A stretch of DNA of 64,000 bases from Firmicutes bacterium CAG:321_26_22. GTDB taxonomy: Bacteria > Bacillota_I > Bacilli_A > RF39 > UBA660. The notes under the pieces were generated by a model. That model saw nothing but the letters and a program-made list of their open reading frames with translations, was not told where the DNA came from and ran no database searches. Shown piece after piece: positions 11,790-51,998 of this stretch. Both the position numbers and the translations under genes were made by a program. Every line of letters begins with the position of its first letter. The stretch's first letter is position 1. The DNA is taken from the NCBI GenBank assembly GCA_001916775.1, contig MNTB01000030.1, forward strand, positions 33,962-97,961, given 5' to 3'.

Positions 11790-11877
11790 TTATTTCAGAG
11801 ACATTTGGCCCAGTAAATTTTTTTGAAAGACTTTTGGCTTTCAAAAACCTCGAACAATGTAATGTGAGAGGGATATA
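11790..11877 (+). repeat. intergenic double-hairpin repeat, copy A (core CGAACAATGTAATGTGAGAGG)
   Basis: Shares the hairpin-T-run-hairpin-core architecture with copies at 17160, 21431, 43073, 48870 and 51867. Confidence 0.7.
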
Positions 11878-12303
11878 TTACCTTCTACTTTTTCCTTTAG
11901 AAGATAATAGTTCTTCTCTTAAACATCTATAATATTCAATACAATTAACATATCTATTTTCTTTTTCATTAAATATCCATATAGCAGTTAAATCTTCTAA
12001 CGAGATAGCTCCCATTTGACCATCTTGTACTTTGGTATAAGGTGCTTCTAGTACTGGTCTTTTATCGTAGTAAAATAGTTTATCTCCACCTCTAGTCCAA
12101 AATAATTCATTATTATGACCACCTTTTACTTTATCTTTACTTCTTGCATATCCACTAGTTATAATATCTTCTACTTGATCCATACCGGTTACTCTATATA
12201 CAAAATTATCATTTGTCTTCATAGCAATAGGACTATCTTTCCCAAAAGCTAATTCTCGGACAAATACTCTATTTCTAGTAGTTTCTATTCTATCGTCTTC
12301 CAT
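11878..12303 (-). CDS. hypothetical protein (141 aa), last gene of the Ca-ATPase operon
   Basis: ORF lying 3 nt downstream of 12306-12680. Confidence 0.5.
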   Translation of the reverse strand: MEDDRIETTRNRVFVRELAFGKDSPIAMKTNDNFVYRVTGMDQVEDIITSGYARSKDKVKGGHNNELFWTRGGDKLFYYDKRPVLEAPYTKVQDGQMGAISLEDLTAIWIFNEKENRYVNCIEYYRCLREELLSSKGKSRR

Positions 12304-12305
12304 AT

Positions 12306-12680
12306 TTATTCCTTTTCTATAGTAGTTCTACCACTTATTCTATTATCACTATCTTTAATCCAAAGATAATATTTTTTATATGTAAAGTAATTACTCTCTA
12401 CTTTATTATTTTCTATTTTATTCCAGCATAATGAATCTATACTGGGAACACTCTTAGTTGTTTTTAAACAGTATTCAGTTGGATCTCCTGTTGTTGTTAT
12501 TATAAGTTTATTATTTTCTTTAGTAATACTTTCTATTTTAGCTATCATATTTTCATTAGGTTTAGCATAATACTGATTATTATCACTATCTGGTAAGATA
12601 TTTTTTGCTACAATGAAACTAAATACTGATAAGATGAATATACCTCCAAGTACTATAAATGTACTATTATTATTTTTCAT
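12306..12680 (-). CDS. hypothetical secreted or membrane-anchored protein (124 aa, N-terminal signal/TM)
   Basis: N-terminal hydrophobic segment. Overlaps the ATPase stop. Confidence 0.5.
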   Translation of the reverse strand: MKNNNSTFIVLGGIFILSVFSFIVAKNILPDSDNNQYYAKPNENMIAKIESITKENNKLIITTTGDPTEYCLKTTKSVPSIDSLCWNKIENNKVESNYFTYKKYYLWIKDSDNRISGRTTIEKE

Positions 12681-15285
12681 TTTTAACCTCCCTGTAATCT
12701 TTAAATAATTTTGTATATATTGGTTTTACTAACTCTCCTAATACAAACATTATAAAACATATTCCGATAGTTATCAAGATATAATTTATTTTTATATTTG
12801 GTACTATAAAGTATTTACTTATTGGGGTTACTAATACTATGATTTGAACTAATAGTATTAAGAATACTCCTAATGTTAGTTTTTTATTTGAAAAGATATT
12901 TTTATTTAGTACTGACTTTTTAATATTACGACAAGAGAACGAGAATAGTAATTCATGAGTTACTAAGTAGATAAATAATAATGAACCTGCAGTATTTACA
13001 TCTGCTTCTTTTGCAAAATAGATAAATATTATTAACATTACTATTGATTTTATGATTGCTCCGATTACTATTTTAGCTGTTAATAATGGGGTGAAGAAAC
13101 TTTCATTGTATTTATTAGCAAGAGTATTTTCCATTTGGTCTTCTGTTTTCTTTTCGAAAGCTAACATAATAGCAGGTATACTATCTGTTACTAGGTTTAT
13201 CCATAGTAGTTGTAATGTTGTAAACATTTCCATATTTAGTACCATGGATATGAATACTAGTATTACTTCGATTATATTACCTGCGAGTAAGTATAGTATT
13301 ATTTTCTTGATATTAGAAGTTATTCTTCTTCCTTCTTCAACTCCATCTACGATGGTTGAAAAACTATCATCTACAAGAATACAATCTGCTACTTTTTTTA
13401 CTACTTCAGTTCCGGTTATGCCCATGCCTATTCCAATATCAGCTTTTTGAATAGCGGGTGCATCGTTTACGCCATCACCGGTCATAGCTACAACATAACC
13501 ATTACTTTGAAGTGCATCTACTATCCTTAATTTGGTACTTGGTGATATTCTAGCATAAACATTATATTTTTTTACTGCTTCTTTTAATTCATCGTCTGTT
13601 AACTTATCTATTTCTTTTCCTGTTGTGGCTCCTTCATCGGTATCGATAATACCAACACTTTTAGCTATTGCACGAGCAGTATTTATACTATCTCCAGTTA
13701 TCATAACTATTTTTATACCAGAATTTTTACAAGTATTAATAGCATTTGGTACTGATATTCTTGGTGGATCCATCATTCCTATTAATCCTATAAATATCAT
13801 ATTATGTTCTGGATCACTTGTGTTTTCTGTTTTATAGGCTAGTGCTAAGATACGAAGGGATTTTTCTGATTCTTCTTCTTCTATTTTAAATATTTTTTCT
13901 TTATATTCAGTAGTTATATTATATAACTTATTATCTTCTAGATAATAGGAACAGTTTTGTAATACTGAGTCTAAACTTCCTTTAGTAAATGAATATTCTT
14001 TACCTTCAATGGTATTGATAGTACTCATCATTTTTCTATCTGAGTCAAATGGATACTCTTTCACTCTTGGAATATTTATTAATATATTTTTTTCTTCAAG
14101 GTATTTATAGATGGCTACTTCGGTTTCATCTCCTAGATATTTGTCGTTATTCTTTGTTACATTTTGACAACTTGATAAACAATAATTATATAGATTTATG
14201 TTTTCGATATTATCTTTTTCGGTATATAATTTATTGTTTACATAGATACTTTTTACTTGCATTTTGTTCTCAGTAATAGTTCCTGTTTTATCAGAACAGA
14301 TTATGTCAGTAGAACCTAGTGTTTCAACAGAAGCCATCTTTCTTATGATTACATTTCTTTTAGCCATTTCGGACATTCCTAGAGATAATATTATGGTTAT
14401 TACTGATGACATTCCTTCAGGGATAGCTGCTACTGCTAGGGAAATGGATAACATTAGGATATCAAAGAAATCATTCTTTTTAAGTAGGCCTACGGCCATC
14501 ATAACTATTATTATTGCTATTATTATATAGGTTAATACTTTACTTATTTGATTTACTTTCTTTTGGAGTGGAGTTAGTTCATTCTTATTATTCATAAGGC
14601 TTGCTCCTATTTTACCTAGTTCTGTATTCATAGCGGTACTACATACTACTACAAAGGCATGTCCATTTGTTACATTACAGCCAGCATAAACCATATTTTT
14701 TCTTTCGTATAATTCTTTTTCTTCGGTTATATCTATATTATCTTTCTTGATACTTTTTGATTCCCCAGTTAGGGTTGATTCATTTACTTCTAAGGCTTCT
14801 GATGATATTATTCTAGCATCAGCAGATACATAGTCTCCTGCTTCTAACTCTATTATATCTCCTGGTACAATCTTTCTTACATCAATTGTTTCTTTTTTAC
14901 CATTTCTTATGACATTATTATTTGTTATAAACATTTTATTTAGTTCTTCGATTGCTTTATCGGCTTTCTTCTCTTCAATATAACTTAGAGTAGCATTTAT
15001 TATGACGATTATTAGAATTATTACTGAGTCAGCATATGATTCTTTTTGAATATAAGATATTACTGCAGAAAATACTGAAGCAAAGATAAGTAAAATTATC
15101 ATTAGATCATTAAACTGATTTAAAAAGATTATTAAATTTGATTTTTTCTTTCGTTCTGCTAATTTATTTTCGCCATACTCCTCTAATCTCTTACTTGCTT
15201 CTTCTTCAGTTAATCCATTTATATTGGTATCTAATTCTTTATATAGTTCTTCAACTTTTTTATTATAATAATTATTTTCTTTCAT
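12670..15285 (-). CDS. P-type cation-transporting ATPase (P2-type, Ca2+-ATPase-like)
   Basis: DKTGTITENKM phosphorylation site, MITGDS, GDGVNDAPA, about 10 TM segments, 871 aa. Confidence 0.85.
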   Translation of the reverse strand: MKENNYYNKKVEELYKELDTNINGLTEEEASKRLEEYGENKLAERKKKSNLIIFLNQFNDLMIILLIFASVFSAVISYIQKESYADSVIILIIVIINATLSYIEEKKADKAIEELNKMFITNNNVIRNGKKETIDVRKIVPGDIIELEAGDYVSADARIISSEALEVNESTLTGESKSIKKDNIDITEEKELYERKNMVYAGCNVTNGHAFVVVCSTAMNTELGKIGASLMNNKNELTPLQKKVNQISKVLTYIIIAIIIVMMAVGLLKKNDFFDILMLSISLAVAAIPEGMSSVITIILSLGMSEMAKRNVIIRKMASVETLGSTDIICSDKTGTITENKMQVKSIYVNNKLYTEKDNIENINLYNYCLSSCQNVTKNNDKYLGDETEVAIYKYLEEKNILINIPRVKEYPFDSDRKMMSTINTIEGKEYSFTKGSLDSVLQNCSYYLEDNKLYNITTEYKEKIFKIEEEESEKSLRILALAYKTENTSDPEHNMIFIGLIGMMDPPRISVPNAINTCKNSGIKIVMITGDSINTARAIAKSVGIIDTDEGATTGKEIDKLTDDELKEAVKKYNVYARISPSTKLRIVDALQSNGYVVAMTGDGVNDAPAIQKADIGIGMGITGTEVVKKVADCILVDDSFSTIVDGVEEGRRITSNIKKIILYLLAGNIIEVILVFISMVLNMEMFTTLQLLWINLVTDSIPAIMLAFEKKTEDQMENTLANKYNESFFTPLLTAKIVIGAIIKSIVMLIIFIYFAKEADVNTAGSLLFIYLVTHELLFSFSCRNIKKSVLNKNIFSNKKLTLGVFLILLVQIIVLVTPISKYFIVPNIKINYILITIGICFIMFVLGELVKPIYTKLFKDYREVKNEK

Positions 15286-15297
15286 CTTTTTACTCCT

Positions 15298-15474
15298 TTA
15301 TATTAGATATGATAGAACAAACATTACTATCATTATTATTAAGATTATTATTAAGAGTACTTTGGTTATGTTTATTAAGATATTTTGATATGGTTTTAGT
15401 ACTCTTATGCCACAGTTACGACAATACTTATCACTATCTCTTACTACTTTTTTACAATTTATGCATTCTTTCAT
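15298..15474 (-). CDS. small zinc-ribbon + TM protein (58 aa, MKECINCKKVVRDSDKYCRNCG...), start overlaps the upstream stop (ATGA)
   Basis: Found by manual translation. CxxC-x10-CxxC followed by a hydrophobic helix. ATGA coupling to 15471-16592. An AAGGAG RBS for the ATPase follows. Confidence 0.45.
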   Translation of the reverse strand: MKECINCKKVVRDSDKYCRNCGIRVLKPYQNILINITKVLLIIILIIMIVMFVLSYLI

Positions 15475-16592
15475 TGTTGTAACCTCTCTTTTATGATATT
15501 TATTATTTCTAATGAACTAGGACTAGATAATTCTCTATGTAGGTAATAGTCATGAATGGCTTCGGCGATTACTTCATCATAATTTACACTTTCTTTTACT
15601 TTTTGACTAGCATATCCTGATATATTTTTGGTAAAGTCTTCAAGTGAAATATTGGTATTATACTTTTTGTTATAACTATCTATGGCTTCTTCGACTAGTT
15701 CTTTTGAGTATGTTCCTTCTTTTAAGATATTTAGAATATTTTGATAACTATTTATATTATCTTTTGTTACTAGTGTTATGTTATCAATATTATTTTGTTT
15801 TAATAATGTTACAAATGTTATGTAATGGCCTAATTCATGGGCTATTAGTGATTCATAACTGGCATTATTTGGATACCAGTTTTCTTTTAATCCTTTACTT
15901 AGGATATCTTTATTTAAGAAATAATAACTATTTAATAAGATTTCGGTTTTATTTACTTTGTTATATTCTTTTATATCTAAGTTATTATTTACAAAAGTAT
16001 TAGTAGGATTAAAATAAGCTATATAATCCTCATTACTTGGAGCATTGGTTACTGTTATGTTTGTTAGATAGCCTTTTATATTAGGAAATAACTGATAGGT
16101 TGCACTTATTACTTCTTTTATTTTGTTTGATACATCTTCATCAACATCGCATAAACTTACACTGGGAATGTTATAGCTTTCACTTATTTCTTTTTCAATT
16201 ATGGATACATTTATATTTCTTTTACATTTCCAAGATTGTTTTGTGATATCTTGTTTTATTAGGTTTATGGCTTCTTCTTTGGTACTCAAAGTTACATTTG
16301 TATATTTATTATTGGTATTCATAATGGATACTTTATAACCATATTTTAAGCTAGATATTTCTTTTTGTAATTCTATGTATGGTCTAAACATATCTTTACC
16401 ACTTATTAAAGTCATAGTAATAAAACTTATTATGATAATAGAAGTTAAGGTAAATAATGAGCCAATATTATTTTCTTTATATCTTAATTTATTATCTTTT
16501 AGAGATAAATAACCATGAGGAGTTAGTTCTCCGCAGGTGGGACAGAAGTTATCATCTACTTCTAGTTCTTCATTACACTTTATACATTTCAT
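15471..16592 (-). CDS. membrane-anchored zinc-ribbon protein with an HExxH zinc-metallopeptidase motif
   Basis: N-terminal CIKCNEELEVDDNFCPTCG, one TM helix, and HELGHYI near residue 243. Confidence 0.6.
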   Translation of the reverse strand: MKCIKCNEELEVDDNFCPTCGELTPHGYLSLKDNKLRYKENNIGSLFTLTSIIIISFITMTLISGKDMFRPYIELQKEISSLKYGYKVSIMNTNNKYTNVTLSTKEEAINLIKQDITKQSWKCKRNINVSIIEKEISESYNIPSVSLCDVDEDVSNKIKEVISATYQLFPNIKGYLTNITVTNAPSNEDYIAYFNPTNTFVNNNLDIKEYNKVNKTEILLNSYYFLNKDILSKGLKENWYPNNASYESLIAHELGHYITFVTLLKQNNIDNITLVTKDNINSYQNILNILKEGTYSKELVEEAIDSYNKKYNTNISLEDFTKNISGYASQKVKESVNYDEVIAEAIHDYYLHRELSSPSSLEIINIIKERLQQ

Positions 16593-16690
16593 AAATACCT
16601 CCTTTGCTACTTTATTTAATTATATCATATTTTGTCGTATTTGTTTGTAAAAAAATGATATTTTTATTTTTAATGGGAAAATTATATTAG

Positions 16691-17137
16691 GTGTTAGATA
16701 TGAATTTTCAAAAACTAATAGAATTAAGAGAAAACTTTAATCTTAAACAAAAGGATATTGCTAAGATATTAAACATTACTCAGCAGACTTATTCACTATG
16801 GGAAAATGGCAGTAAAATTATTCCTTTAAAGCATTTGAATTCTTTATGTAACTATTATAATGTTAGTATGGATTATATGCTGGGGCTTTCTAATAAGAAT
16901 AGTTTTAATAATGGTAAATATAATATTGATAAAAAGATTATTGGTAGGAGATTAAAAGAATTTAGAAAAGAAAAAAATATTACCCAAGAAGAACTAGCTA
17001 GTACTCTTAATACTACTCATTCAACGATTAGTGCTTATGAAAGTGGTAAAACTACTATTCTTACAGCTTTTGCTTATGAGATATGTAAAAGATATAACAT
17101 TTCTATGGATTATTTATGTGCTAGAATACTTATTTGA
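16691..17137 (+). CDS. tandem HTH_XRE transcriptional regulator (two Cro/C1-type HTH domains); start probably at 16700
   Basis: Two repeats of the QxxLAxxLxxSxxTISxxExG pattern. Divergent from the metallopeptidase/ATPase operon. Confidence 0.75.
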   Translation: MLDMNFQKLIELRENFNLKQKDIAKILNITQQTYSLWENGSKIIPLKHLNSLCNYYNVSMDYMLGLSNKNSFNNGKYNIDKKIIGRRLKEFRKEKNITQEELASTLNTTHSTISAYESGKTTILTAFAYEICKRYNISMDYLCARILI

Positions 17138-17159
17138 TATTTTTTATATTATATATACT

Positions 17160-17241
17160 TTTATTTCAGAGACATTTGGCTCTGAAATTTTTTTGAAAGA
17201 CATTTGGCTTTCAAAACCTCGAACAACATAGTGTGAGAGGC
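17160..17241 (+). repeat. intergenic double-hairpin repeat, copy B (core CGAACAACATAGTGTGAGAGG)
   Basis: tcagag-ACATTTGG-ctctga, then T7, then gaaag-ACATTTGG-ctttc, then the core. Confidence 0.75.
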
Positions 17242-17382
17242 ATATAATTTTTTTATTCATATTTTTTTGTGAAGATATTTATAAATGAGAATTAAGGTTT
17301 ATGATAAAGTTTAAGAAACATCTATAGTTTTTTGCAATTTTATTATATACAATTATTTATTTATGTGGTAAAATTATAATAG

Positions 17383-19155
17383 GTGAAGAAGAATATGCTG
17401 GGGAGAATTATTGCTATTAATGATAATATTGTTTCAGTACAATTATCTGTTAATATTTATGATTATGATAGTTTAATTAGTAAGAATGTTATATTTAAAG
17501 ATACTACTGCAATTAGTATTGGAGAAGTTATTGCTATCGGTAATGGTATTATGCAGGTATCTTTAGTGGGAGAAATTAGGAATAATAAGTTTTTATTTGG
17601 AGATATTTCTAAGCCTTCTTTTAAGGCTACTTGTAATTTGATTGATAATAGTGTTCTTGATATTATTTTAAATAATGATGGACCTAATAGTATTAAACTT
17701 GGTAAGTCTTTTATTTATCCTGATTATGATATTAAACTTGATGTTGGTAATTTCTTTTCTAATCATTTTGCTATACTAGGTAATTCTGGTAGTGGTAAAT
17801 CTTACTCTGTTGCTAAGATTCTTCAGAGTGTCTTCTACCAATGTAAGAGTTTACCTTTCTATTCTAATATATTCTTATTTGATGCTTATGGAGAGTATCA
17901 AAGAGCTTTTTCTAGGATACATGAAGTTAATGATAATATTAATTATAAGGTATATACTACTGATTTAAATAGTACTGAATTTGATATTTTACAATATCCT
18001 TTTTGGTTACTTGGTATTGATGATTTAGCTTTACTTATGGGTGTTACTTCTAAAGAGCAATTACCAGTTATTGAGAAGGCTTTAAAATTAGTTAGTTATT
18101 TTGCTAGAAAAGAAGAAGAAGTTATTAATCAGAAAAATGATATTATTGCTAGATGTTTATTAGATATTTTATTTTCTGGTAAGAGTGCTAGTATGATTAG
18201 AAATAAGATTGTTTCTATTCTTACTAAATTTAATACTAGTAATCTTAACTTAGAAGTTAAACTTGTTAAGGGTGGATGGACTAGAACTATTAGACAATGT
18301 TTATTCGTAGAGAATACTGGTGAGTTTTCGGATGTTGAGGTTGTTATTGAATACTTAGAAAGTTTATGTTTGGATAATTTTGAGCTTTCTCTTCCTAATG
18401 GGGAATATATGTATACTATGAAAGACTTTAGTACGGCTTTGGAGTTTGCTCTTATATCTGAAGGTACGTTAAATAGTGATAAGGCTTTTGAACTTACTAA
18501 TATTCTTAAAGTTAGATTTAACAATTTAATGAATAGTAATTATGCTAGATACTTTGAATTTGATAATTATATTAATAGAGAGAGTTTTATTAATTTACTT
18601 CTTACTACTAATGATGGTAAGAAAGCACAGATTGTTAATTTTAATATTAATTATGTTGATGATAGATTTGCTAAGAATTTGGTTAAAATATTTTCTAAAC
18701 TTTTATTTGATTATATTGTATCTCTTAATCAGAGGGCTTCAATGCCATTTCATATTGTTCTTGAAGAGGCTCATAGATATGTTCAGAATGATGAAGATGT
18801 CACTATACTTGGATATAATATTTTTGAAAGAATTACTAAGGAAGGTAGAAAATATGGATTACTTCTTGGTATTGTTTCTCAAAGACCTTCTGAGCTTTCT
18901 GAAACTACAATATCACAGTGTAGTAACTTCTTAGTGTTTAAGATGTTCCATCCTAGAGATCTTCAGTTTATTAAAGATATTATTTCTAGTGCAGATATTA
19001 CTTTGACTAATAAGATTAAGACTTTACATCCTGGTACTTGTATTATGTTTGGTACGGCTTTTAAGATGCCTACGATTGCTATTCTTGATAAACCTAATCC
19101 TGAACCTCTTAGTCAGAGTTGTGATATTAATAAGACTTGGTATATTCATAATTAG
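17383..19155 (+). CDS. HerA/FtsK-like ATPase (DUF87, HAS-barrel N-terminus)
   Basis: Walker A GNSGSGKSYSVAKIL, HIVLEEAHRY, and the C-terminal GRKYGLLLGIVSQRPSEL arginine-finger region. Confidence 0.7.
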   Translation: MKKNMLGRIIAINDNIVSVQLSVNIYDYDSLISKNVIFKDTTAISIGEVIAIGNGIMQVSLVGEIRNNKFLFGDISKPSFKATCNLIDNSVLDIILNNDGPNSIKLGKSFIYPDYDIKLDVGNFFSNHFAILGNSGSGKSYSVAKILQSVFYQCKSLPFYSNIFLFDAYGEYQRAFSRIHEVNDNINYKVYTTDLNSTEFDILQYPFWLLGIDDLALLMGVTSKEQLPVIEKALKLVSYFARKEEEVINQKNDIIARCLLDILFSGKSASMIRNKIVSILTKFNTSNLNLEVKLVKGGWTRTIRQCLFVENTGEFSDVEVVIEYLESLCLDNFELSLPNGEYMYTMKDFSTALEFALISEGTLNSDKAFELTNILKVRFNNLMNSNYARYFEFDNYINRESFINLLLTTNDGKKAQIVNFNINYVDDRFAKNLVKIFSKLLFDYIVSLNQRASMPFHIVLEEAHRYVQNDEDVTILGYNIFERITKEGRKYGLLLGIVSQRPSELSETTISQCSNFLVFKMFHPRDLQFIKDIISSADITLTNKIKTLHPGTCIMFGTAFKMPTIAILDKPNPEPLSQSCDINKTWYIHN

Positions 19156-19175
19156 TTATAATAAAAAGATAATTC

Positions 19176-19215
19176 TTGATATTTAGAATTATCTTTATTT
19201 TTTATGCCACTTCAG
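19176..19215. terminator. bidirectional rho-independent terminator (aaagataattct...agaattatcttt flanked by A/T runs)
   Basis: 12-bp perfect stem, T-run on plus and A-run upstream. Serves the convergent genes at 17383-19155 and 19263-20315. Confidence 0.7.
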
Positions 19216-19262
19216 CCTATAGTCTTACGTGGTAAATTAGAGCCCTGTAGTCTCTAATTTAG

Positions 19263-20315: not shown

Positions 20316-20316
20316 A

Positions 20317-41976: not shown

Positions 41977-41984
41977 TAATTTTA

Positions 41985-43072: not shown

Positions 43073-43151
43073 GTTTTGAGATGACAAGCTCAAAACTTTT
43101 TTCTAATGACCTTAGGCATTAGAAAACGGCGAACAACATAGTGTGAGACGA
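43073..43151 (+). repeat. intergenic double-hairpin repeat, copy D (core GGCGAACAACATAGTGTGAGACG)
   Basis: tttgag-ATGACAAG-ctcaaa, then T6, then ctaatg-ACCTTAGG-cattag, then the core. Confidence 0.7.
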
Positions 43152-43165
43152 TACTGAAAAAGAAT

Positions 43166-43723: not shown

Positions 43724-43768
43724 AGATACCTCCTACTGTATTATATGTTATAAAAAAAGAAATAGATA

Positions 43769-44086
43769 CTATTTTAATTTATCTATATCTTTCTTTACTT
43801 TATTTATTTTTGTATTTAGAGTAGTTATTTTATCTTCTAAGTCTTGTTTTTGTTTTTCCAGATTTTGATTATTTTCTTTGATTAATTCATAATTTTCTTT
43901 AATGTTTTTTAGTTCTTCTATCTCTTCAGTTAATTCTTGATGTTCTTTTAGGTAGTTATTTAATTCTTTATTTTTGTTATTTAAATTTATTTTTTGATAT
44001 ATGGTATATACTAGAAGGCTAAATATTATTAGGGTTATAATTATGATGATAGGTGGTAATATTTTGTTTACTTTTTTATTTCTCAT
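43769..44086 (-). CDS. membrane-anchored coiled-coil protein (105 aa)
   Basis: N-terminal TM helix, then heptad-rich K/E sequence. Confidence 0.45.
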   Translation of the reverse strand: MRNKKVNKILPPIIIIITLIIFSLLVYTIYQKINLNNKNKELNNYLKEHQELTEEIEELKNIKENYELIKENNQNLEKQKQDLEDKITTLNTKINKVKKDIDKLK

Positions 44087-45039
44087 TAGTAATATAACGC
44101 CTTCTTTCCATAATAGTTATATCTTTCTTTGAAGATAATTTTTGATTGGTATTTGGCTTTACCATTTATTGGGTCTGATATTATGACTTTATCTTCGGTA
44201 TAGCCTATTATTACTACAGCATGCTCATTGGCCTTCCAGTAAATTGTTTCTCCTGTTGGTTCATATATCCAAGACTGTGATATATAAGGTACTGCTAGAT
44301 ACATGGAAGTCCATACCATAACTGGTTTGCCTGTTTTTACTACTTCTAGTATTTTTTCAAAACTTGTTCCTGTTGCTATTTTGATACCGCTTTTATATTG
44401 GTTGGCAACATTAGCAATTGGTTTTTCATATACTCCGTAAGCATTTAAACTATAAGGATTACCTATAAACTCTACCTCAGGATTACCTCCATATAGTTTG
44501 CCATTTTTGGTTACGGGAACACTTCCCTTTGGTAATTTATTTATGATATCGTCAGGAGTTACGGATACTCCATAGTATTTTAGAAGAATAGTTAAGGCTA
44601 CTGATTCACAACCAGTTGGATAGTTGGGATACTGATTGATAAAGGGTACATTTGAGATATAGAAACTATTTTTTTCAGCATTCTCTTTGACTAGTTTATA
44701 GTATTCTTTTTGAAGACTTGATAATTTGTCTTCGAGGTCTATGATGGTATTTTCTAGTGATGTTATATTGTCTTCAAGATCTTTTGAGATTGTTTTTTCA
44801 CTAGTCATTATTTCTTCTATATCTTCATCACTGAAGGTAGAGACTGCGAGTAAATTGGATACTGAGGTATTTAATTCTTCTTTTTCTTCTTTTAAAGTAC
44901 TTATATTTTTCTTATCTTTTAGGTCCTCTTGTAATATCTTATTTGATGCTTTTAGTGATGCTATATCGTTATTTAGTATTAGTATTTCTGATATCATTAA
45001 TAGTAATACTATGGTAAAACCTAGTAGTGTTTTTTTCAT
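44086..45039 (-). CDS. C39-like (YvpB-type) papain-fold cysteine peptidase domain protein with an N-terminal TM/coiled-coil
   Basis: Cys in YPTGCESVALT and His in HAVVIIGY. Confidence 0.55.
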   Translation of the reverse strand: MKKTLLGFTIVLLLMISEILILNNDIASLKASNKILQEDLKDKKNISTLKEEKEELNTSVSNLLAVSTFSDEDIEEIMTSEKTISKDLEDNITSLENTIIDLEDKLSSLQKEYYKLVKENAEKNSFYISNVPFINQYPNYPTGCESVALTILLKYYGVSVTPDDIINKLPKGSVPVTKNGKLYGGNPEVEFIGNPYSLNAYGVYEKPIANVANQYKSGIKIATGTSFEKILEVVKTGKPVMVWTSMYLAVPYISQSWIYEPTGETIYWKANEHAVVIIGYTEDKVIISDPINGKAKYQSKIIFKERYNYYGKKALYY

Positions 45040-45059
45040 AACTACTCCTCTTTTCTTTT

Positions 45060-47141
45060 TTATAATTTGGTTATGTTTGGATGGCCTTTCATTAGTTTTC
45101 TTATACCAAATGGATGTGGAAAGGCTACGGTTATGATGGATTTATCAACACTTATTACTATTCCTTCACCAAACTCAGTATGTAAGATATGTTCTCCTAC
45201 TTCATAAGTGGCATTTTTGTCGACAGTCTTTTTTACTTTAGTTATTATTTTTTCTAGTTTTTTTGGTCTTTCTTTATCGATATATTCTTTATCTATTTCA
45301 TCAATAAATCTACTAGGTTGATTTCTCATTGGATTACCAAATAACATTCTGGTATCTGCTGATGTTATATATAATTCTTTTTTGGCTCTTGTTATAGCGA
45401 CATAACATAGTCTTCTTTCTTCTTCAATAGCGGAATTACTTCCATCATTAATAGCATTATAGTGAGGGAATATTCCTTCTTCCATACCGACAATGAAGAC
45501 ATAATCAAACTCTAGTCCTTTTACTGAATGAACGGTCATTAGGCTTACTCTATTTGAACTATCTTGATGTTCGGACATGTCACTTACTAATGAGATTTCG
45601 TCTAGGAAGTCTCCGAGTGAGGCAGTTCCGTATTCTTCTTCATAACTTTTGGTTACACCTTTGAACTCATTTAGGTTCTCTAGTCTTATTTCATCTTCGA
45701 GTAATTTGGATGTTGATAGTTCTTTTTTGATACCGGTTTTTTCTAAAATTTCATCTATTAATTCAGTTAGTGATAATGATTCACTAGCTTTTGTTAGGTC
45801 TTCGATTAGGTTTTTGAACTCTAGTTCTTTTCCTTTACTTATTGTTTCATATAGAGATAATTCTCTAGTTGTTGCTTCTTCAGTTAGAGTCTCAATTGTT
45901 TTATCTCCGATTCCTCTTCTTGGGGTATTTATTACTCTAAGCAAACTTACATCATCTTTATGATTATTTATTAGCCTTAAGTAACATAATAGGTCTTTTA
46001 TTTCTTTTCTGTTATAGAAGTAGAAACTTCCTACGACTCTATATTTAATATTTTTCTTTAGCATTTCTTCTTCAATAACACGAGACTGGGCATTAGTACG
46101 ATATAATACCGCTATATCTTCTTCGTTTATGCCTTCACTTAATAGTCTTTTTATTTCAGTTCCGACGAATGATGCTTCTTCTTTTTCGTTTGCTACTTCT
46201 TTATATTTTATTTTATTACCAGTTGCATTATTACTCCATAGGTTTTTATCTTTTCTTTCATGATTGTTTTTGATTACGCTATTAGCGGCATTTAATATGG
46301 TTTTGGTTGAACGATAGTTTTCTTCAAGTAGGATTGTTTTGGCCTCAGGATAATCTTTTTCGAAGTTTAGGATATTCTTGTAGTTGGCTCCTCTAAAGGC
46401 ATATATTGCTTGATCATTATCTCCTACTACGAAGATATTTCGATACTTTGCTGATAGTAATTTACTAAAGGTATATTGGGCTTCATTGGTATCTTGATAC
46501 TCATCTATTAGGATGTATTTATATCTATCTTGATATTCTTCTAATACACGAGGATAGTTTCTGAATAGTTTTATTGGTAGTATTAGTAAGTCATCAAAAT
46601 CTACGGAATTACCATTTTTTAGTTTTTGCTGATATTCTTTATAGACTTCTACTACTTTGTGATCAAACTCTACTTTAGCAAATGAATCTATACTCATCAT
46701 TTCATTTTTAGCAGAACTTATTTTATTTTTTATTTCTCTTGGGTTATATCTATCTTTAGACATATTTTTATCTTTTAATATTTTCTTTATGATTGTTAGG
46801 ACATCATCGCTATCTATAATAGTAAAGTTTTTTTCATAGCCTAACATGCTATAGTTTTCTTTTAATATTTTTAGGCCTAAGGAATGGAATGTTGATATTT
46901 GGATATTATAGGCTTCTTTTCCTATTAATCTTACTACTCTATCTTTCATTTCTTTAGCGGCTTTATTAGTAAATGTTATAGCTAATATGTTATATGGACT
47001 TATACCATTTTCGATTAGATTTGCTATTCTATTTGTTAATACTTTGGTTTTTCCTGAACCAGCTCCTGCTAAAACAAGCATTGGTCCATCTATATGATTA
47101 ACTGCTTTTTGTTGTTCTTTATTTAATTCTTGTATTTGCAT
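45060..47141 (-). CDS. pcrA: ATP-dependent DNA helicase PcrA (UvrD family)
   Basis: AGAGSGKTKVLT, DEYQDTN and VGDNDQAIYAFRGA helicase motifs. C-terminal Tudor-like domain. Confidence 0.9.
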   Translation of the reverse strand: MQIQELNKEQQKAVNHIDGPMLVLAGAGSGKTKVLTNRIANLIENGISPYNILAITFTNKAAKEMKDRVVRLIGKEAYNIQISTFHSLGLKILKENYSMLGYEKNFTIIDSDDVLTIIKKILKDKNMSKDRYNPREIKNKISSAKNEMMSIDSFAKVEFDHKVVEVYKEYQQKLKNGNSVDFDDLLILPIKLFRNYPRVLEEYQDRYKYILIDEYQDTNEAQYTFSKLLSAKYRNIFVVGDNDQAIYAFRGANYKNILNFEKDYPEAKTILLEENYRSTKTILNAANSVIKNNHERKDKNLWSNNATGNKIKYKEVANEKEEASFVGTEIKRLLSEGINEEDIAVLYRTNAQSRVIEEEMLKKNIKYRVVGSFYFYNRKEIKDLLCYLRLINNHKDDVSLLRVINTPRRGIGDKTIETLTEEATTRELSLYETISKGKELEFKNLIEDLTKASESLSLTELIDEILEKTGIKKELSTSKLLEDEIRLENLNEFKGVTKSYEEEYGTASLGDFLDEISLVSDMSEHQDSSNRVSLMTVHSVKGLEFDYVFIVGMEEGIFPHYNAINDGSNSAIEEERRLCYVAITRAKKELYITSADTRMLFGNPMRNQPSRFIDEIDKEYIDKERPKKLEKIITKVKKTVDKNATYEVGEHILHTEFGEGIVISVDKSIITVAFPHPFGIRKLMKGHPNITKL

Positions 47142-47213
47142 CTTGTTACCTCACTTTTCTCTATTTCATTGTATCATATTTTAGAGATATTATAAAGGGT
47201 AAGATGTTTATTT

Positions 47214-47268
47214 TGTTATTTTTTGTCACTTTAAGTCTTGAGTCTTAAAGTGCTATTTAAAGCCAATT
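47214..47268. repeat. hairpin repeat, family 2 (cactttaagtcttgagtcttaaagtg-CTATTTAAAGCCAATT); second copy at 56567-56617
   Basis: About 80% identity over roughly 50 nt between the two intergenic copies. Confidence 0.5.
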
Positions 47269-47382
47269 TTTTTATTGTCTTTAAATAGGATATCAGCCAT
47301 ATTTATTATAGAGTAGTTAGGGTTATATACTCTTTTTATTGGTTTATTAATAAAAAAACTTAATAGTTTGTTGTCTATTAAG

Positions 47383-48423
47383 TTATTTTTTACTTTTTTT
47401 GTAATGGCATTTCGGATAATTACTGCAGCCAATGAAAATTCCATATTTTCCTTTACGCTCTATTAATTTACCTCCACAATCTGGACAGATCATACTATTT
47501 TTCGAACTATAATCTTCCATTTTATTACTTTTACCCATATTACATCTATCACATAGGGTTTGAAGATTACTCATGACAGTTTTTCCGCCTTTAGATACTG
47601 GAATAATGTGATCAACGTGAAGTTTTGCTCCGTCTTTAGCTGATATACCACATAATTTGCAAGTAAAGTTATCTCTTTTCAAAACATTATATCTAATATC
47701 ATCATTCATAATTTTTCTTTCCTGCTTTATGGTTTCTTCGTATTTATTACCATTTTGCCATTCTTTATACAATTTAACTAAATCTTCAAAAGAATAGTTT
47801 CCATATCTAGTTTCATTAACCTTTCCTGCATTACTTCTATAATAAACTTCTAGCTTTAATTTTATTAAAAACTCTTTTCTTTTATGAATAGAATCATTTA
47901 ATACTCTATTTTCTATTTTTTGAAATTTTTTTGATGAATAATTTGTTTTATTTTTAGATTTATAATTAATAATTTTATCTACTTCTTTGGTATATTCTTC
48001 TAATAAATCGATATTATATATAGCATTTTCTATATCAGTTCTAATTAAATCAATATTATTTTCTATATGATATTTTATAATACTTGATCCTGTCACTCTC
48101 TCTAAACTTTTTCTTGAGTATTCGCGGTCTATAATATTATGTTTTTTCTTTGTTATCCTTTTAAAATGATATTTTTCGTTTAATTTATTCAATTCTTGTA
48201 TTTTTATACTTGATTTTGATACTTCTTCATTTTCTTTTTTTATCATTTTTCTTATTACAAATATATATAATATTAGTGGAAACAATCCTATCAAAGTGCT
48301 GATGACTACAATTGTTTGTTCATTTAATGCTAATAATTTAAATAATATATATGATGTATAATAACTAATATAACCACTAATGATAATTAATGTTGTTTTT
48401 TGCCATTTCTTCATATTTGACAC
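47383..48423 (-). CDS. membrane-anchored HNH endonuclease with a C-terminal topoisomerase-type C4 zinc finger
   Basis: Two N-terminal TM helices. HNH motif LHVDHIIPVSKGGKTVMSNLQTLCDRCN. CPDCGGKLIERKGKYGIFIGCSNYPKC matches the zf-C4_Topoisom pattern. Confidence 0.65.
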   Translation of the reverse strand: MSNMKKWQKTTLIIISGYISYYTSYILFKLLALNEQTIVVISTLIGLFPLILYIFVIRKMIKKENEEVSKSSIKIQELNKLNEKYHFKRITKKKHNIIDREYSRKSLERVTGSSIIKYHIENNIDLIRTDIENAIYNIDLLEEYTKEVDKIINYKSKNKTNYSSKKFQKIENRVLNDSIHKRKEFLIKLKLEVYYRSNAGKVNETRYGNYSFEDLVKLYKEWQNGNKYEETIKQERKIMNDDIRYNVLKRDNFTCKLCGISAKDGAKLHVDHIIPVSKGGKTVMSNLQTLCDRCNMGKSNKMEDYSSKNSMICPDCGGKLIERKGKYGIFIGCSNYPKCHYKKSKK

Positions 48424-48514
48424 CTCTTTTTTATTATAACATACATTTTAAATAATCAATATATAATTTAACTAAGCAATTTGACAAAAGTATATATTTA
48501 TGCTATTATTAGTA

Positions 48515-48628
48515 TGTAAGCAAGGGAACTTGCATAAAATAAAAATAGGAAACATTCAATAGTCACAATTGAGTGTTGCCAATAATTTGGTTTCACCTGA
48601 CTTAAAGCATTAAGTTAGGTGATTTTCT
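48515..48628 (+). ncRNA. candidate type I antitoxin antisense sRNA (promoter TTGACA-17-TATTAT at 48481-48509; terminator hairpin 48585-48614 + T-run)
   Basis: Promoter and terminator bracket about 110 nt of non-coding sequence. Its 3' end lies 3 nt from the stop of the convergent 27-aa hydrophobic ORF. Confidence 0.45.
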
Positions 48629-48630
48629 TT

Positions 48631-48714
48631 TTAATTAAATGTTTTAAATAACAATATAATCAAAAGGAAGATTGTCATAGTTTGAAAGAAAATTAAAAAA
48701 GCTTTCTTGCTCAT
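48631..48714 (-). CDS. candidate type I toxin: 27-aa hydrophobic peptide MSKKAFLIFFQTMTIFLLIILLFKTFN
   Basis: Found by manual translation. Strong RBS GGAAGGGAGG 7 nt upstream. Promoter TTGTTT-18-TATAAT at about 48781-48815 (minus). Single predicted TM helix with a KK N-terminus. Confidence 0.5.
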   Translation of the reverse strand: MSKKAFLIFFQTMTIFLLIILLFKTFN

Positions 48715-48869
48715 AATATCGCCTCCCTTCCTTAATAGAAGTTCGGCAAGCACCCAACTTATTTGAATATCTCCTAATACAATTATAACATTTTTTATAT
48801 CTTAAAAACAAGCGAACACCTTAATATTTATGGTGTTTTCTTTAATATTTACTATAACTTTACAAACAA

Positions 48870-49009
48870 TGTAAATAATTCATAGACTTCTACTGATGGC
48901 TATGAATTACTATAGAAAGACATTAGGCTTTCTATAGCAGTGAACAACGAAGTGTGAACTCTAAAAAAGAAGGATTTATTTTTTCCTTCTTTTAAATATT
49001 TTTACTAGT
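48870..49009 (+). repeat. intergenic double-hairpin repeat, copy E; 48910-49009 is 100% identical to 51899-51998, and 49010-49046 is a degraded copy of the amidase 3' coding end
   Basis: Base-by-base comparison with copy F. Includes the last 6 codons plus stop of the Amidase_2 gene. Confidence 0.8.
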
Positions 49010-49040
49010 CTCTCTAATTATTTATCTAAGTCATTATTAT

Positions 49041-49934
49041 TTATATTTTTTCTAAGACTCCTAATTCTAAATCTTTTATTGTATATAAGTGCTCAATTTT
49101 ATCATAGGCATCTTCTAGATTCAGTCTAGATTTGTTCCAACCATTTCCATCTGTAATCCAAACAAATTTAACACCATTTAGTTTATTAATTTCATTATTT
49201 AGTTCTACATAACTTTTTGCAGTTTCATTCGGTTTAGATCCTTGTGTTCCATAAAAATTCACTTCCATTACTATTAATTCGTTATTTGAAGGACTCTTAA
49301 AAACAAAATCAAACTTCTTTGTTGCCTTTCCTATTGCACATAGATTTGTTCCATATTCTTTATCAATATCTTTATATTTCATTTGTTTTTGATATGGTAC
49401 TCCAAGTTTTTTTATGAATTCCTCTACTAAGTCTTCCATTATTTTTCCACTGCGATTTTTTCTACTATTTGAATCTAATCCCACTTCTATCCCTATCGCA
49501 TAATCAACAAGATTCTTAATTTTTCTATTACTTATTAAGTCAAATAATCCACTATTTTTTAAAAAATCTGCATAATTGTTGATCGGCTTGTCAATTTCTT
49601 TAAAATCGTAACAAATAAATTTTTCTTCTAGAAATTTAAAGTCCATATCTTTTATGGAATTTAACATATCTACTGTTGATGCATTAATTATATGAAATTT
49701 ATATTCGTGAGTTGCTAATAAAATCGGTATTGATTTCATTATTTCTGGATACTCATTTATTAAGTCAACAAATTCTTCCTCTATATTTTCTTTTCCAATC
49801 AGGCTATTTAATAAGTTTAAATGTCTTTCATAATCTTTGATATTTAAATAAACTTTAGAAAAATCAACAAAAAAATCCGCTGGGGTTATACTTTTTTTTA
49901 ATGATAACATTAGGTCATTAAAATTTCTTTTCAC
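49041..49934 (-). CDS. putative Type II restriction endonuclease (DpnII/MboI-like, GATC-specific) - third gene of the R-M cassette
   Basis: The gene order Dam-like MTase, N6_N4 MTase, then a roughly 290-aa protein mirrors the S. pneumoniae DpnII cassette (dpnM-dpnA-dpnB). Start overlaps the upstream MTase. Confidence 0.5.
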   Translation of the reverse strand: MKRNFNDLMLSLKKSITPADFFVDFSKVYLNIKDYERHLNLLNSLIGKENIEEEFVDLINEYPEIMKSIPILLATHEYKFHIINASTVDMLNSIKDMDFKFLEEKFICYDFKEIDKPINNYADFLKNSGLFDLISNRKIKNLVDYAIGIEVGLDSNSRKNRSGKIMEDLVEEFIKKLGVPYQKQMKYKDIDKEYGTNLCAIGKATKKFDFVFKSPSNNELIVMEVNFYGTQGSKPNETAKSYVELNNEINKLNGVKFVWITDGNGWNKSRLNLEDAYDKIEHLYTIKDLELGVLEKI

Positions 49935-50697
49935 TTATATCACTTTCCTTTCTTCTTATTGTTAAATCTAAATATTCTTTTTCTTTTTCTATTCCTATAT
50001 ATCTTCTTTTTAATCTGCTTGCCGCTATTCCTGTTGTACCGCTTCCATTAAATGGATCTAATATTAAATCATTTTCCTCTGTAGAAGCAAGTATTATTCT
50101 TTCTAATATTTCAATTGGTTTTTGTGTTGGATGTTTACCACAAGTCTTTTCGCTAGGCTTTGTTAAACTAGTTTCCCATACATCTTTCATTTGCTTATTA
50201 TTATTTATTTTTTTCATTAGTGAGTAATTAAACTTATGTTTATTTTTTTTGTCGGCTTTTTTAGCCCAAAGTATTGTTTCAGTAGAATGAGTAAATGCTC
50301 TGCAACTAATATTTGGCGGTGGGTTTAATTTTCTCCAAGTAATGTTATTTATTATTTTAAATCCCTCTTCTTCTAATGCCATTCCTATTGAATAAATATT
50401 ATGCATGGTTCCACTAATCCAAATAGTACCATTTTCTTTTAGTATTTTTTTACATAGTCTAATCCATTTTTTATTAAATTCGTGTTTTTCTTTTATACTA
50501 ATTGCATTGTCCCATGGACCTTTATTAACTGATACCATCTTTCCAGCACTACAAGATATTCCATTATTTGATAAAAAGTATGGTGGATCTGCAAATACCA
50601 TATCAATACTATTTGGCTCTATATTTCTTAGTACTTTTAATGAATCTCCTTGTATTAATTTGAAATTATCTTCTTCATAATAATATTTTTTTATCAT
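49918..50697 (-). CDS. DNA methyltransferase, N6_N4_Mtase family (DpnA-like second methylase)
   Basis: Motif IV DMVFADPPY precedes motif I ILDPFNGSGTTGIAA (beta-class order). Confidence 0.8.
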   Translation of the reverse strand: MIKKYYYEEDNFKLIQGDSLKVLRNIEPNSIDMVFADPPYFLSNNGISCSAGKMVSVNKGPWDNAISIKEKHEFNKKWIRLCKKILKENGTIWISGTMHNIYSIGMALEEEGFKIINNITWRKLNPPPNISCRAFTHSTETILWAKKADKKNKHKFNYSLMKKINNNKQMKDVWETSLTKPSEKTCGKHPTQKPIEILERIILASTEENDLILDPFNGSGTTGIAASRLKRRYIGIEKEKEYLDLTIRRKESDISEKKF

Positions 50698-50714
50698 ATT
50701 ATTTATCCTATATA

Positions 50715-51569
50715 TTATAGGTCAAAGCCTCTTTTATTTTCATAATTTGTAATAATAACTTCTTCTACTTTGCCTCTTTTTTTACCATTGGCGTTGATAC
50801 TTCTCTTTGCTTCTATTAAATGTATATTATAATCTTTATAAAGTTCATTTATTAGTTCAGTATTATGATTAGATAACATTACGTAGCAGCCTTTGTCTGA
50901 TAATTCCCTATATACTCTGGCTAACCTCTTTTGTTGTTCTTTACCAAAGCCATCCTCTGTATAACTATTGAAAGTTGAGGTATCTGAATCATATGGTGGA
51001 TCAAAATATATAAAATCTCCTTTTTTTGCTTCTTTTACTGCTTCTTCAAAATCTGTTGATAATATTTTTATATCATTGTAATTTAAAAATCCACATATAA
51101 TTCCTAAGTTTTGTCCTTCATAGGTATTTACTTTTGTTTTTTTACCAAATGGTACATTAAATTCGTTTTTACTATTTACTCTGTATAATCCATTAAAACA
51201 AGCTTTATTTAAATAAATTGTTCTTGCTGCTCTTTTATAATCTACTACTTTATTAAATTTTTTCTTATCTCTATCCATATTCCTTATTGTATAATAATAT
51301 TCTTCTGAATGTTTCATTTCATGATTATTTAGTTCTCTGCACATTGCTTCAAATTTTTTTTCATCTTTAATGCATTCGTATACATTCATAAGTTCTTTAT
51401 TTGAGTCATTAATAACTGCATTCTTTGGAGATAATTCAAATAGTAATGCTCCCCCTCCAACAAATGGTTCATAATATGTATTAAACTCATCAGGAACATA
51501 TTTTTTTAATTTATCTATTATTTGTCTTTTTCCGCCTGCCCATTTTACAAATGGCCTTCCTTTTATCAT
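50715..51569 (-). CDS. Dam-family (D12 class) DNA adenine methyltransferase, GATC-type (DpnM-like)
   Basis: FVKWAGGKRQI N-terminal hallmark, EPFVGGGALLFEL SAM site, IYFDPPY motif IV. Confidence 0.85.
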   Translation of the reverse strand: MIKGRPFVKWAGGKRQIIDKLKKYVPDEFNTYYEPFVGGGALLFELSPKNAVINDSNKELMNVYECIKDEKKFEAMCRELNNHEMKHSEEYYYTIRNMDRDKKKFNKVVDYKRAARTIYLNKACFNGLYRVNSKNEFNVPFGKKTKVNTYEGQNLGIICGFLNYNDIKILSTDFEEAVKEAKKGDFIYFDPPYDSDTSTFNSYTEDGFGKEQQKRLARVYRELSDKGCYVMLSNHNTELINELYKDYNIHLIEAKRSINANGKKRGKVEEVIITNYENKRGFDL

Positions 51570-51866
51570 TATTTCACCATCCTATGTTTATTATAATCTT
51601 GCTTTCTATACAATTATAACATTTTTTACATGCTAAAAACAAGCGAACACCTAATATTTATTATATTTTTTGCTATGTTTGATAAATGTTTTTATTTATC
51701 CTATTATTTATTAGTATGTAAACAATAAAATTTATATAAAATAAAAAACAGGAAACGTTTAATAGTAATAATTGAGTGTTATTAATAATTTAGTTTCAAC
51801 TGTAAATGCAATATAGTCAATCACAATTCGGTTATTTGTAGAATTTATAATAATTAATATATACTT

Positions 51867-51998
51867 AAAATCAGAGACTATTAAGAGGCTCTGATTTTCT
51901 ATAGAAAGACATTAGGCTTTCTATAGCAGTGAACAACGAAGTGTGAACTCTAAAAAAGAAGGATTTATTTTTTCCTTCTTTTAAATATTTTTACTAGT
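51867..51998 (+). repeat. intergenic double-hairpin repeat, copy F (100-nt perfect direct repeat of copy E)
   Basis: aatcagag-ACTATTAAGAGG-ctctgatt, then ctatagaaag-ACATTAGG-ctttctatag, then GTGAACAACGAAGTGTGAACTC. Confidence 0.8.

Follow-up and report, generated by a model that had tools for sequence, protein, structure and literature searches.

The intergenic gaps of a 64,000-nt stretch of contig MNTB01000030.1 from Firmicutes bacterium CAG:321_26_22 (hereafter the window) contain six copies of a short hairpin-forming element. The window has a G+C content of 26.8%, nearly all of its genes are encoded on the minus strand and the GC skew of its plus strand is negative throughout. An earlier note on this DNA had described the element as a double hairpin followed by a GAACAAC-GTGTGA core, present in six same-orientation copies, and both the number and the common orientation are reproduced. 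The core pattern GAACAAY-N(1-3)-ARTGTGA has six matches in the window, all on the plus strand (starting at 11852, 17221, 21486, 43131, 48942 and 51931), versus 0.01 expected, and the loop AGACNTTNGGC has seven, likewise all on the plus strand, versus 0.10 expected. A de novo repeat search independently groups the same six copies as family D2. A covariance model, which the note had suggested as a check, was built from related sequences and run over the window with filters off. It returns exactly six matches, with scores of 71.7-77.4 bits, while the runner-up scores 22.9 bits.

All six copies are located on the plus strand. C1 (11789-11871) is composed of a degenerate hairpin 1 (11789-11817), hairpin 2 (11820-11847) and hairpin 3 (11848-11871). 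Its covariance-model match spans 11820-11873 (76.8 bits), its minimum free energy (MFE) fold consists of three hairpins, and hairpin 3 stops 5 nt short of the point where the stop codon of a 141-aa open reading frame (ORF), convergent to it, begins. C2 (17163-17240) has hairpin 1 at 17163-17188, followed by a T-run, hairpin 2 at 17191-17216 and hairpin 3 at 17217-17240. It is matched by the model at 17190-17242 (71.7 bits), has a fold z-score of -3.5, was also recovered in the hairpin scan and is flanked by two plus-strand genes, HTH and HerA according to Pfam searches of the neighbors. C3 (21427-21505; hairpins at 21427-21453, 21454-21481 and 21483-21505; 72.5 bits) is positioned directly past the uvrA terminator. 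C4 (43072-43150; 77.4 bits), with hairpin 1 at 43072-43097 plus a T-run, hairpin 2 at 43099-43126 and hairpin 3 at 43127-43150, adjoins the 3' end of the VanY gene. C5 (48876-48961; hairpins at 48876-48909, 48910-48937 and 48939-48961) and C6 (51867-51950; hairpins at 51867-51898, 51899-51926 and 51928-51950) form the left and the right border of a DpnII restriction-modification (R-M) block. Both score 71.8 bits, and they are 97% identical to each other across 112 nt (repeat D3). The ranges 48870-49009 and 51867-51998 previously assigned to these two copies do contain the element, but also an ordinary intrinsic terminator that follows it.

Architecture of the element

The element is a triple and not a double hairpin, with a size of about 55-90 nt. 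Its invariant module consists of hairpin 2 and hairpin 3, which abut. In an alignment of distinct copies, a 10-bp stem results from pairing between the T-run that precedes hairpin 2 and the A-run that follows it, and the top of this hairpin is always built from a G-C pair, an A•G mismatch and a C-G pair, plus an N-U-U-N tetraloop. The GAACAAC-GTGTGA core, formerly taken as a linear motif, actually folds into hairpin 3 with covarying pairs. This hairpin has an outer stem of 4 bp (CCTC/GAGG, AGT/ACT or CG.C/G.CG), an internal loop of tandem G•A/A•G, an inner stem ACAAY/RUGU in which an A is bulged, and a loop of 3 nt (GAA, ATA, GTA or AAA). Hairpin 1 carries a similar top (A-U, G-C and A•G, followed by a 5-14-nt loop). 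This hairpin varies and, albeit usually present, is optional: it is absent in L001, L005, L019 and L142 (L numbers denote the loci compared with the window) and degenerate in C1. The earlier description of hairpin 1 applies to part of the copies only. The T-run behind it is found in C1, C2 and C4, whereas in C3, C5 and C6 hairpin 1 abuts hairpin 2, and the AGAC..GG top attributed to every copy does not fit C4 (AGA-TGACAA-GCT) or the degenerate hairpin 1 of C1. MFE folds of the full copies, computed without use of the manual structure, consist of three abutting hairpins with z-scores of -1.6 to -4.0.

The variant at L107 (8124-8174) has a third hairpin built like hairpin 2 (stem CCTCATTAA, loop ACTTTAGG) in place of hairpin 3, which shows that the G-A-C...G-G-C hairpin is the basic repeat unit.

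Several other properties that the element might have had were discarded. A small ORF across the element exists in C2 only (minus strand, read by eye) and is not conserved in C1 or C3. At CGAAC, comparison with the LexA (Cheo box) consensus gives a half-site only. A tRNA-like closing stem formed by the flanks is confined to C1 and C2 and represents A/T-rich chance pairing. The C required for a Mini-III ACCU cleavage site in the loop is present in just 25 of 56 sequences, and the two free loop letters, examined for hypermutability, are polymorphic among 41 C1 orthologs to no greater extent than some flank sites.

Covariation and folded strand

Among 25 distinct sequences, 96.6% of the cells are paired and 10 of 19 pairs have changed on both sides. 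The corresponding values for a set of 56 distinct sequences gathered with the model are 96.8% and 13 of 19. In this larger set, to which the following counts refer, the observed values are matched by none of 500 shuffles, and pairing falls to 31-51% when the 3' partner is slid. The sequences represent about six stem types, and the number of independent events is modest. The stem pairs listed in the earlier note are correct, and its argument from co-varying stems to selection on structure is borne out by this covariation. The element is under selection for single-strand structure. Compensatory change in situ, between species at the uvrA site, was considered and dropped, as hairpin-1 and outer-stem types are shuffled among copies.

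The wobble pairs indicate which strand is folded. G•T occurs in 14 cells versus a single cell for A•C, and the pair closing the triloop is CG in 31, UA in 16, UG in 9 and CA in no sequence, with all four combinations permitted by the search pattern. The folded strand is thus the plus strand of the window. Since the genes of the window are mostly encoded on the minus strand, the folded strand of the six copies is antisense to most genes. Near-invariance is seen at the A•G and tandem G•A positions, and the unpaired U14, U15, A35, A38, A44 and A50 are invariant or nearly so. This invariance is partly due to ascertainment, because the loop TT, GAC/GGC and most core letters were fixed by the search patterns. 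Copies found by the model only show single changes (CAAAC, GTCC..AAGC, GTGTTA, ACTAC).

Genomic context and terminators

In 37 copies inspected for their context, hairpin 3 usually has a convergent gene beside it, whose stop codon is 5-33 nt away, whereas about seven copies instead follow a gene on their own strand. The neighboring genes are mutually unrelated and include uvrA, VanY, the DpnII endonuclease, amidases, a U32 peptidase, an NlpC/P60 protein, DNA ligase and parA. A linked gene family was also sought downstream on the same strand, where the ORFs (~150 aa) turned out to be unrelated proteins and not transposases. On the element strand, GC skew has a negative sign in the window, L001, L007 and L027 and a positive one in L005, L011, L013, L019, L023 and L142, and in the latter six loci the element runs with the genes. 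Orientation is thus tied neither to replication nor to the neighboring genes, and a replication-strand bias is ruled out by the occurrence of both skew signs.

Intrinsic terminators are frequent directly behind the element. C3 is followed by a bidirectional terminator at 21510-21549 (A-run, hairpin, T-run) that overlaps the uvrA stop codon and whose hairpin of -9.5 kcal/mol precedes TTTTTT. From sequence and scan, a bidirectional terminator-like hairpin overlapping the VanY stop codon is located after C4 (43157-43189), and bidirectional intrinsic terminators after C5 (48964-48993) and C6 (51953-51982). The scan places a terminator on the element strand at most about 10 nt after the element in C3, C4, C5, C6, L005 and L053. 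A similar downstream terminator was judged by eye to be present in L011, L024 and L032, so that terminators are found at 6-9 of about 14 contexts. Hairpin 1 with its T-run itself has the make-up of an intrinsic terminator, a G+C-containing hairpin with a U-tract directly behind it, in C2 and C4 (that of C4 was flagged as terminator-like), but hairpin 1 of C3, C5 and C6 does not, nor do hairpins 2 and 3.

Judging from sequence data, we tentatively favor the reading that the element is a protein-recognized structured RNA module, often situated just upstream of an intrinsic terminator. It would act as RNA transcribed from the folding strand, which is the plus strand here, either as a short stand-alone transcript or as a 3'-UTR (untranslated region) module directly upstream of an intrinsic terminator. 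A protein partner would recognize the invariant non-Watson-Crick features. The freely varying loop letters beside the invariant UU point to recognition of shape by a protein and not to a base-pairing seed. This reading draws on the structure and the selection acting on it, the folded-strand evidence, the low copy number and the same-strand terminators at C3-C6 and in relatives. It is further consistent with the retention of an orthologous uvrA-site copy in L032, from a species in which the 3' coding sequence of uvrA is 67% identical while hairpin 2 and the core are unchanged, and with the placement of two copies. The L005 module is situated between the stop codon of a gene and that gene's terminator on the same strand, so that transcription is expected there in the folding orientation. 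The L011 module is found within a 1.2-kb stretch free of ORFs and has an orphan terminator behind it.

A number of observations weigh against an RNA. Both strands fold almost equally well, and G•T pairs and G•A mismatches would fit single-stranded DNA equally. The scan detects no downstream terminator at C2, L001, L019 and L023, and where a convergent neighbor gene is present, it accounts for the terminator. In L001, L020 and L028 the module is antisense within a gap of ~95 nt between co-directional genes, 23 nt from a start codon. Hairpin 1 with its U-run is terminator-like and would halt transcription before the module in C1, C2 and C4. Scans for a conserved sigma-70 promoter upstream of hairpin 1 gave results no better than the shuffle expectation. 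Finally, homology between alleles starts exactly at hairpin 1 or 10-25 nt before it, and the left flanks are non-homologous.

A rather improbable alternative is that the elements are ordinary palindromic terminators or insulators, which would do no more than block stray transcription and whose arms are kept complementary by template switching and gene conversion instead of function-specific selection. The terminator-like hairpin 1 with its T-run, its position closely after the stop codon of a same-strand gene in L013, L023, L160 and C2, the location of the elements in terminator-rich gaps and the mosaic copies, which imply frequent gene conversion, are compatible with such an origin. Hairpin 2, however, has its T-run before and its A-run after the stem and cannot terminate in either direction, and hairpin 3 of the C3/C5/C6 type has no U-tract. 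Moreover, correction by template switching would erase the A•G and tandem G•A mismatches, which are invariant, and the canonical terminators in the window lack the G-C/A•G/C-G top. The near-invariance of U14, U15, A35, A38, A44 and A50 also speaks against plain palindromes, although U14, U15 and the core letters are partly fixed by the search patterns.

Short repeats and duplications adjoin some of the copies. A short tandem repeat TCCGCTTATTTCCACTTATTTA is present in two copies at 42990-43035, left of C4, and one to three units of the TTCGGTTATTTGT type, differing in number between strains, are located upstream of C6 in L018, L053 and L101. Left of C1, at 11742-11783, there is a 40-nt stretch aaaaactatagacattaatctatagcttatataaatac that itself forms a small hairpin. 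The same stretch is found in L067 about 300 nt downstream of the HTH gene with no element attached, so that the left boundary of C1 falls at ...aaatac|t. To the left of C3, a 342-aa gene contains a duplicate of the uvrA promoter and first codons (D5, 71%; 21325-21393 versus 24336-24404) and is paralogous to a 350-aa gene (D1 and D4, 73-75%; 19506-20087 versus 20554-21120). L032 lacks both genes.

Distribution

As the earlier note had anticipated, further copies exist outside the window. A scan of a genome collection gave 28 true matches in about 13 species-level genomes, namely metagenome-assembled genomes (MAGs) of uncultured Bacilli or Tenericutes, Clostridium sp. CAG:302 and the 1.46-Mb MAG chromosome CP091726.1, besides five chance matches in high-GC genomes. 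Pattern matches do not exceed about 8 in any genome. Exact-pattern matches number 7, 4, 4, 3, 2, 2 and 1 per species genome, and the covariance model added just two divergent copies in the first 29 flanking loci. A metagenome scan returned at least 120 loci, from the human gut where the record names state a source, and nearly all of the loci listed belong to the same subtypes. The family was thus seen only in MAGs of uncultured gut Bacilli/"Tenericutes" (the Clostridium sp. CAG:302 group). A viral collection contains one true copy, on a 38-kb contig, and two chance matches. As the true copy is a C1 ortholog, a phage origin was dismissed. Rfam 15, searched with the whole window at the gathering threshold, matches none of the elements and reports only DUF3800-I at 10795-10919. 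More permissive Rfam scans of 10400-22000 and 42900-57000 (E up to 10 and 5) likewise gave nothing on any copy.

A related family on the opposite strand

In the window, 17 hairpins combine a GAC...G(G/A)C top with complementary flanks, versus 2.25 in Markov controls. Eleven of them are on the plus strand inside the six copies, and five are on the minus strand at four sites of a second family, here called family 2. One more plus-strand hairpin, at 55809-55842, has six paired stem positions only and is outside any copy. The family-2 sites are 10607-10663, 19205-19261, 47225-47290 (upstream of pcrA) and 56562-56637 (upstream of tsaE), all on the minus strand. The first of these had been proposed as a possible degenerate seventh copy at 10607-10664. 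It scores merely 20.9 bits with the model of family 1 and belongs to the oppositely oriented double hairpins. All four sites read as tandem hairpin pairs in which the G-C/A•G/C-G tops are kept and the hairpin-3 core is missing. RNAalifold predicts two hairpins for family 2, in which 9 of 17 pairs show compensation. In most copies TATAAT comes first, then ~7 nt and the conserved leader GGYTGATAY ahead of the hairpins, and copies are located upstream of an ABC-F gene, pcrA, the tsaE operon and, in L002, an arsR operon. In L031, 73 nt at 56565-56637 are cleanly absent, with no target duplication, and the insertion point is 3' of TATG in three independent copies including the one at 56.6 kb. The hairpin top is thus a module shared by the two families. 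Family 2 hints at either transcription, given its 5' leaders, or single-strand DNA mobility.

The latter relates to an explanation that is possible but unlikely, in which the element is a non-autonomous DNA repeat whose hairpins form in single-stranded DNA, akin to repetitive extragenic palindromes (REPs) and their mosaic arrangements (BIMEs) or derived from IS200/IS605 (PATE/MITE-like). A trans-acting HUH (Y1) transposase or a REP-associated tyrosine transposase (RAYT) would recognize the mismatched tops and spread or maintain the repeats, and any RNA effects would be incidental. The clean presence or absence of the 73-nt family-2 copy 3' of TATG would be expected from such a repeat, as would the occurrence of family 1 in at least 14 distinct genomic contexts, in either orientation and mostly just past stop codons. 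Element boundaries are sharp, the left flank reads ATAC|T in 6 of ~15 contexts (counted by eye), and contig ends are often inside the element. Two same-top hairpins on one strand recall left-end and right-end hairpins, and the copies carry shuffled combinations of hairpin-1, hairpin-2 and outer-stem types, as members of repeat families do. The high dispersed copy number typical of REPs is not seen, however, and no clean empty site of family 1 was found in the loci compared. No Y1 transposase was detected by tblastn with an IS200 TnpA query in the ~1 Mb around the copies to which the search extended, a weak negative. The two signs of strand skew leave no bias towards the lagging-strand template, the lower stems differ between copies, which is unexpected for copy-and-paste spread, and the third hairpin has no counterpart in IS200/IS605 ends.

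Exchange of accessory blocks at the copies

The copies had been expected to coincide with synteny breaks, and this holds at the R-M block, the C1-C2 block and the left flanks of C3 and C4. The DpnII R-M block (49029-51886), which is bracketed by C5 and C6 as described before, is absent in L025 and L031, where one hybrid element is left. In L015 only the Dam methylase remains, and in L018 another gene takes the place of the block. In L035, a single C1/C2 hybrid stands in for both copies, and the intervening 5.3-kb block is missing. C4 is present in all ten contigs that encode an identical VanY protein, with four alternatives on its left side. A SpaA-domain gene is one of them, a 107-aa gene another and a 159-aa gene together with a DUF3800 gene the third, and in the fourth there is nothing. 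On the left of C3, two different flanks occur, whose divergence sets in exactly at hairpin 1. For two further blocks, the earlier description was partly correct. The DUF3800 gene of the window has a copy on one side and a family-2 element on the other, and in the supposed HerA plus transglutaminase block no transglutaminase is found by Pfam.

The breakpoints themselves are heterogeneous. Alleles differ in the distance from hairpin 1 to the left junction of C4 (~10, 13 or 25 nt). The break is left of hairpin 1 in some alleles and between hairpin 1 and the right flank in others, and at the C5/C6 locus hairpin 1 moves with the left flank. Crossovers in C1/C2 hybrids are located upstream of hairpin 1 in L035 and L153 and within or after hairpin 3 in L090 and L107. 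The varied junctions, the behavior of hairpin 1 at C5/C6 and the varied hybrid crossovers argue against a site-specific mechanism. The repeats flanking the R-M block extend beyond the element (D3 97%, D11 91%, D7 93% identity). Many breakpoints are located away from any copy (47345/48480, 52643/53472, 10917, 19271), and the interval between C3 and C4 comprises 21.5 kb of housekeeping genes including uvrA, rsgA, prkC, rlmN and rpe. The idea that the copies are dedicated markers of cassette borders does not survive these housekeeping genes, off-copy breaks and varied junctions and crossovers. From the sequence comparisons we conclude that the exchange is probably homology-driven, with the copies acting as shared homology in permissive intergenic gaps. 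The DpnI/DpnII cassettes of Streptococcus pneumoniae, which are exchanged via flanking homology, provide an analogy. Under the favored RNA reading, the association with accessory genes would be a by-product: the copies would serve as portable homology at the few permissive sites of a compact genome, and homologous recombination between or beside them would delete, insert or swap the intervening blocks.

Two free-standing HNH endonuclease genes, at 47383-48423 (HNH_5 plus Top1 zinc ribbon) and 52730-53320 (NUMOD4/NUMOD1/HNH_3), are precisely absent in several relatives, with breaks at 47345/48480 and 52643/53472. A DUF3800-I RNA (RF02969, 65.6 bits; 10795-10919, plus strand, own terminator included) is located 0.9 kb from C1. 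This RNA and the DUF3800 gene at 10915-11703 are convergent, the RNA overlapping the stop codon of the gene. L021, L030 and L034 retain the RNA region, with the DUF3800 gene replaced.

The arrangement of the copies could also suggest integron-like attC sites, at which a recombinase binds the folded strand and exchanges blocks. Six co-oriented copies within 40 kb fold opposite to most genes, their mismatched bases are conserved although the stems vary, strains differ in the R-M block, in the 5.3-kb block from C1 to C2 and in the genes to the left of C3 and C4, with breaks at the copies, and the window encodes a tyrosine recombinase at 887-1995. Nevertheless, this explanation is extremely unlikely and is disfavored for want of R/L boxes and IntI. 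The alignment of the copies contains no RYYYAAC/GTTRRRY core sites on either strand, and the element is made of three separate hairpins instead of one long imperfect hairpin. The sole recombinase is a frameshifted phage/ICE-type integrase (Arm-DNA-bind_4 plus Phage_integrase; ICE, integrative and conjugative element), separated from C1 by 10 kb and unrelated genes, and neither an IntI-type integrase nor attI is adjacent. The junctions at C4 (~10/13/25 nt), the linkage of hairpin 1 to the left flank at C5/C6 and the differing hybrids leave no fixed crossover. Housekeeping operons lie between the copies, and elsewhere copies occur singly and in both orientations.

Very unlikely, too, is a broader variant in which the G-C/A•G/C-G top would be the signal for an undescribed enzyme binding hairpins of single-stranded DNA or RNA. 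Families 1 and 2 would then be sites of hairpin-guided block exchange or mobilization, an integron analogue without IntI. If true, such a hairpin-guided system would explain why defense and accessory genes change precisely beside copies.

The integrase is split into the overlapping ORFs 887-1450 and 1393-1995 and adjoins an OLD-like pair (AAA_21 ATPase plus RloB). The region 887-4193 is probably a small degraded island.

Further features of the window

A candidate type I toxin-antitoxin locus is located at 48481-48815. It comprises a hydrophobic 27-aa ORF, MSKKAFLIFFQTMTIFLLIILLFKTFN (48631-48714, minus strand), with a strong Shine-Dalgarno sequence, a TGnTATAAT promoter and no Pfam match, and, convergent to it, a plus-strand promoter at 48481-48509 (11 of 12 matches) followed by a 13-bp terminator at 48593-48622. 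Inside the pcrA coding region, at 45355-45458 on the minus strand, there is a sub-threshold match to Rfam RF03531 n00280, annotated as 'C. difficile sRNA included into helicase gene' (47.1 bits versus a gathering threshold of 65.2).

Comparison with known elements and implications

REP/BIME repeats and REPINs, known from Proteobacteria and associated with RAYT, are among the closest known counterparts. Like the present element, they are short imperfect intergenic palindromes, usually just past stop codons, with distinguishable strands and conserved mismatches, arranged in clusters of two or three hairpins and serving as recombination substrates. REPs differ in that they occur in tens to hundreds per genome, carry a GTAG-type 5' head and have a cognate RAYT gene, whereas the present element has a low copy number, no GTAG-type head, no RAYT found in the ~1 Mb searched around its copies and an extra third hairpin with a tandem G•A loop. 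BOX and RUP of S. pneumoniae are modular structured intergenic repeats of a low-GC Gram-positive bacterium, whose modules are present or absent between copies. The modularity and the location in intergenic gaps are shared, hairpin 1 being the optional module here. BOX shows no sequence similarity to the element, however, is larger and far more numerous and is not strand-constrained by G•U, and there is no Rfam match here. With integron attC sites and CALIN arrays the element shares a folded strand, variable stems, conserved unpaired bases, co-orientation and a position at borders of variable genes, but it has neither R/L boxes nor IntI nor a fixed crossover, and core genes are located between its copies.

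Among small RNAs, the Listeria family LhrC1-5/Rli22/Rli33-1 comprises five to eight paralogous RNAs of ~100 nt per genome, each with three hairpins and partly clustered. Their loop motifs are conserved between hairpins, and the loops carry the base-pairing seed UCCC. In the present element, by contrast, the letters beside the invariant UU vary freely, and scans found no conserved promoter. The motifs DUF3800-I, drum, FuFi-1 as well as skipping-rope described by Weinberg et al. 2017 (PMC5737381) are compact, conserved structured RNAs with 3' intrinsic terminators, rarely found in 5' UTRs and located near accessory or defense-type genes in either orientation. The present element has another structure and sequence, no consistent partner gene and, at several copies, no terminator. 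It works most like REP/BIME or BOX-type repeats, or like the terminator-linked motifs of 2017, and is a member of none of them. The family is new, its general kind (a structured intergenic repeat or a small RNA) is known, and it is restricted to one gut lineage.

The host is a very common, uncultured small-genome bacterium of the human gut, with one flanking protein indexed in 1301 public-assembly blocks. Should the element be an RNA, a lineage without studied RNA biology would gain a compact, covariation-defined class. The invariant A•G and the tandem G•A suggest a specific protein partner. The covariance model is directly usable to annotate genomes of the host lineage. RNA or not, the copies explain how strains swap R-M, DUF3800, HerA-linked and other accessory blocks at fixed sites, which is of use for reading strain variation and the turnover of defense islands in gut metagenomes.

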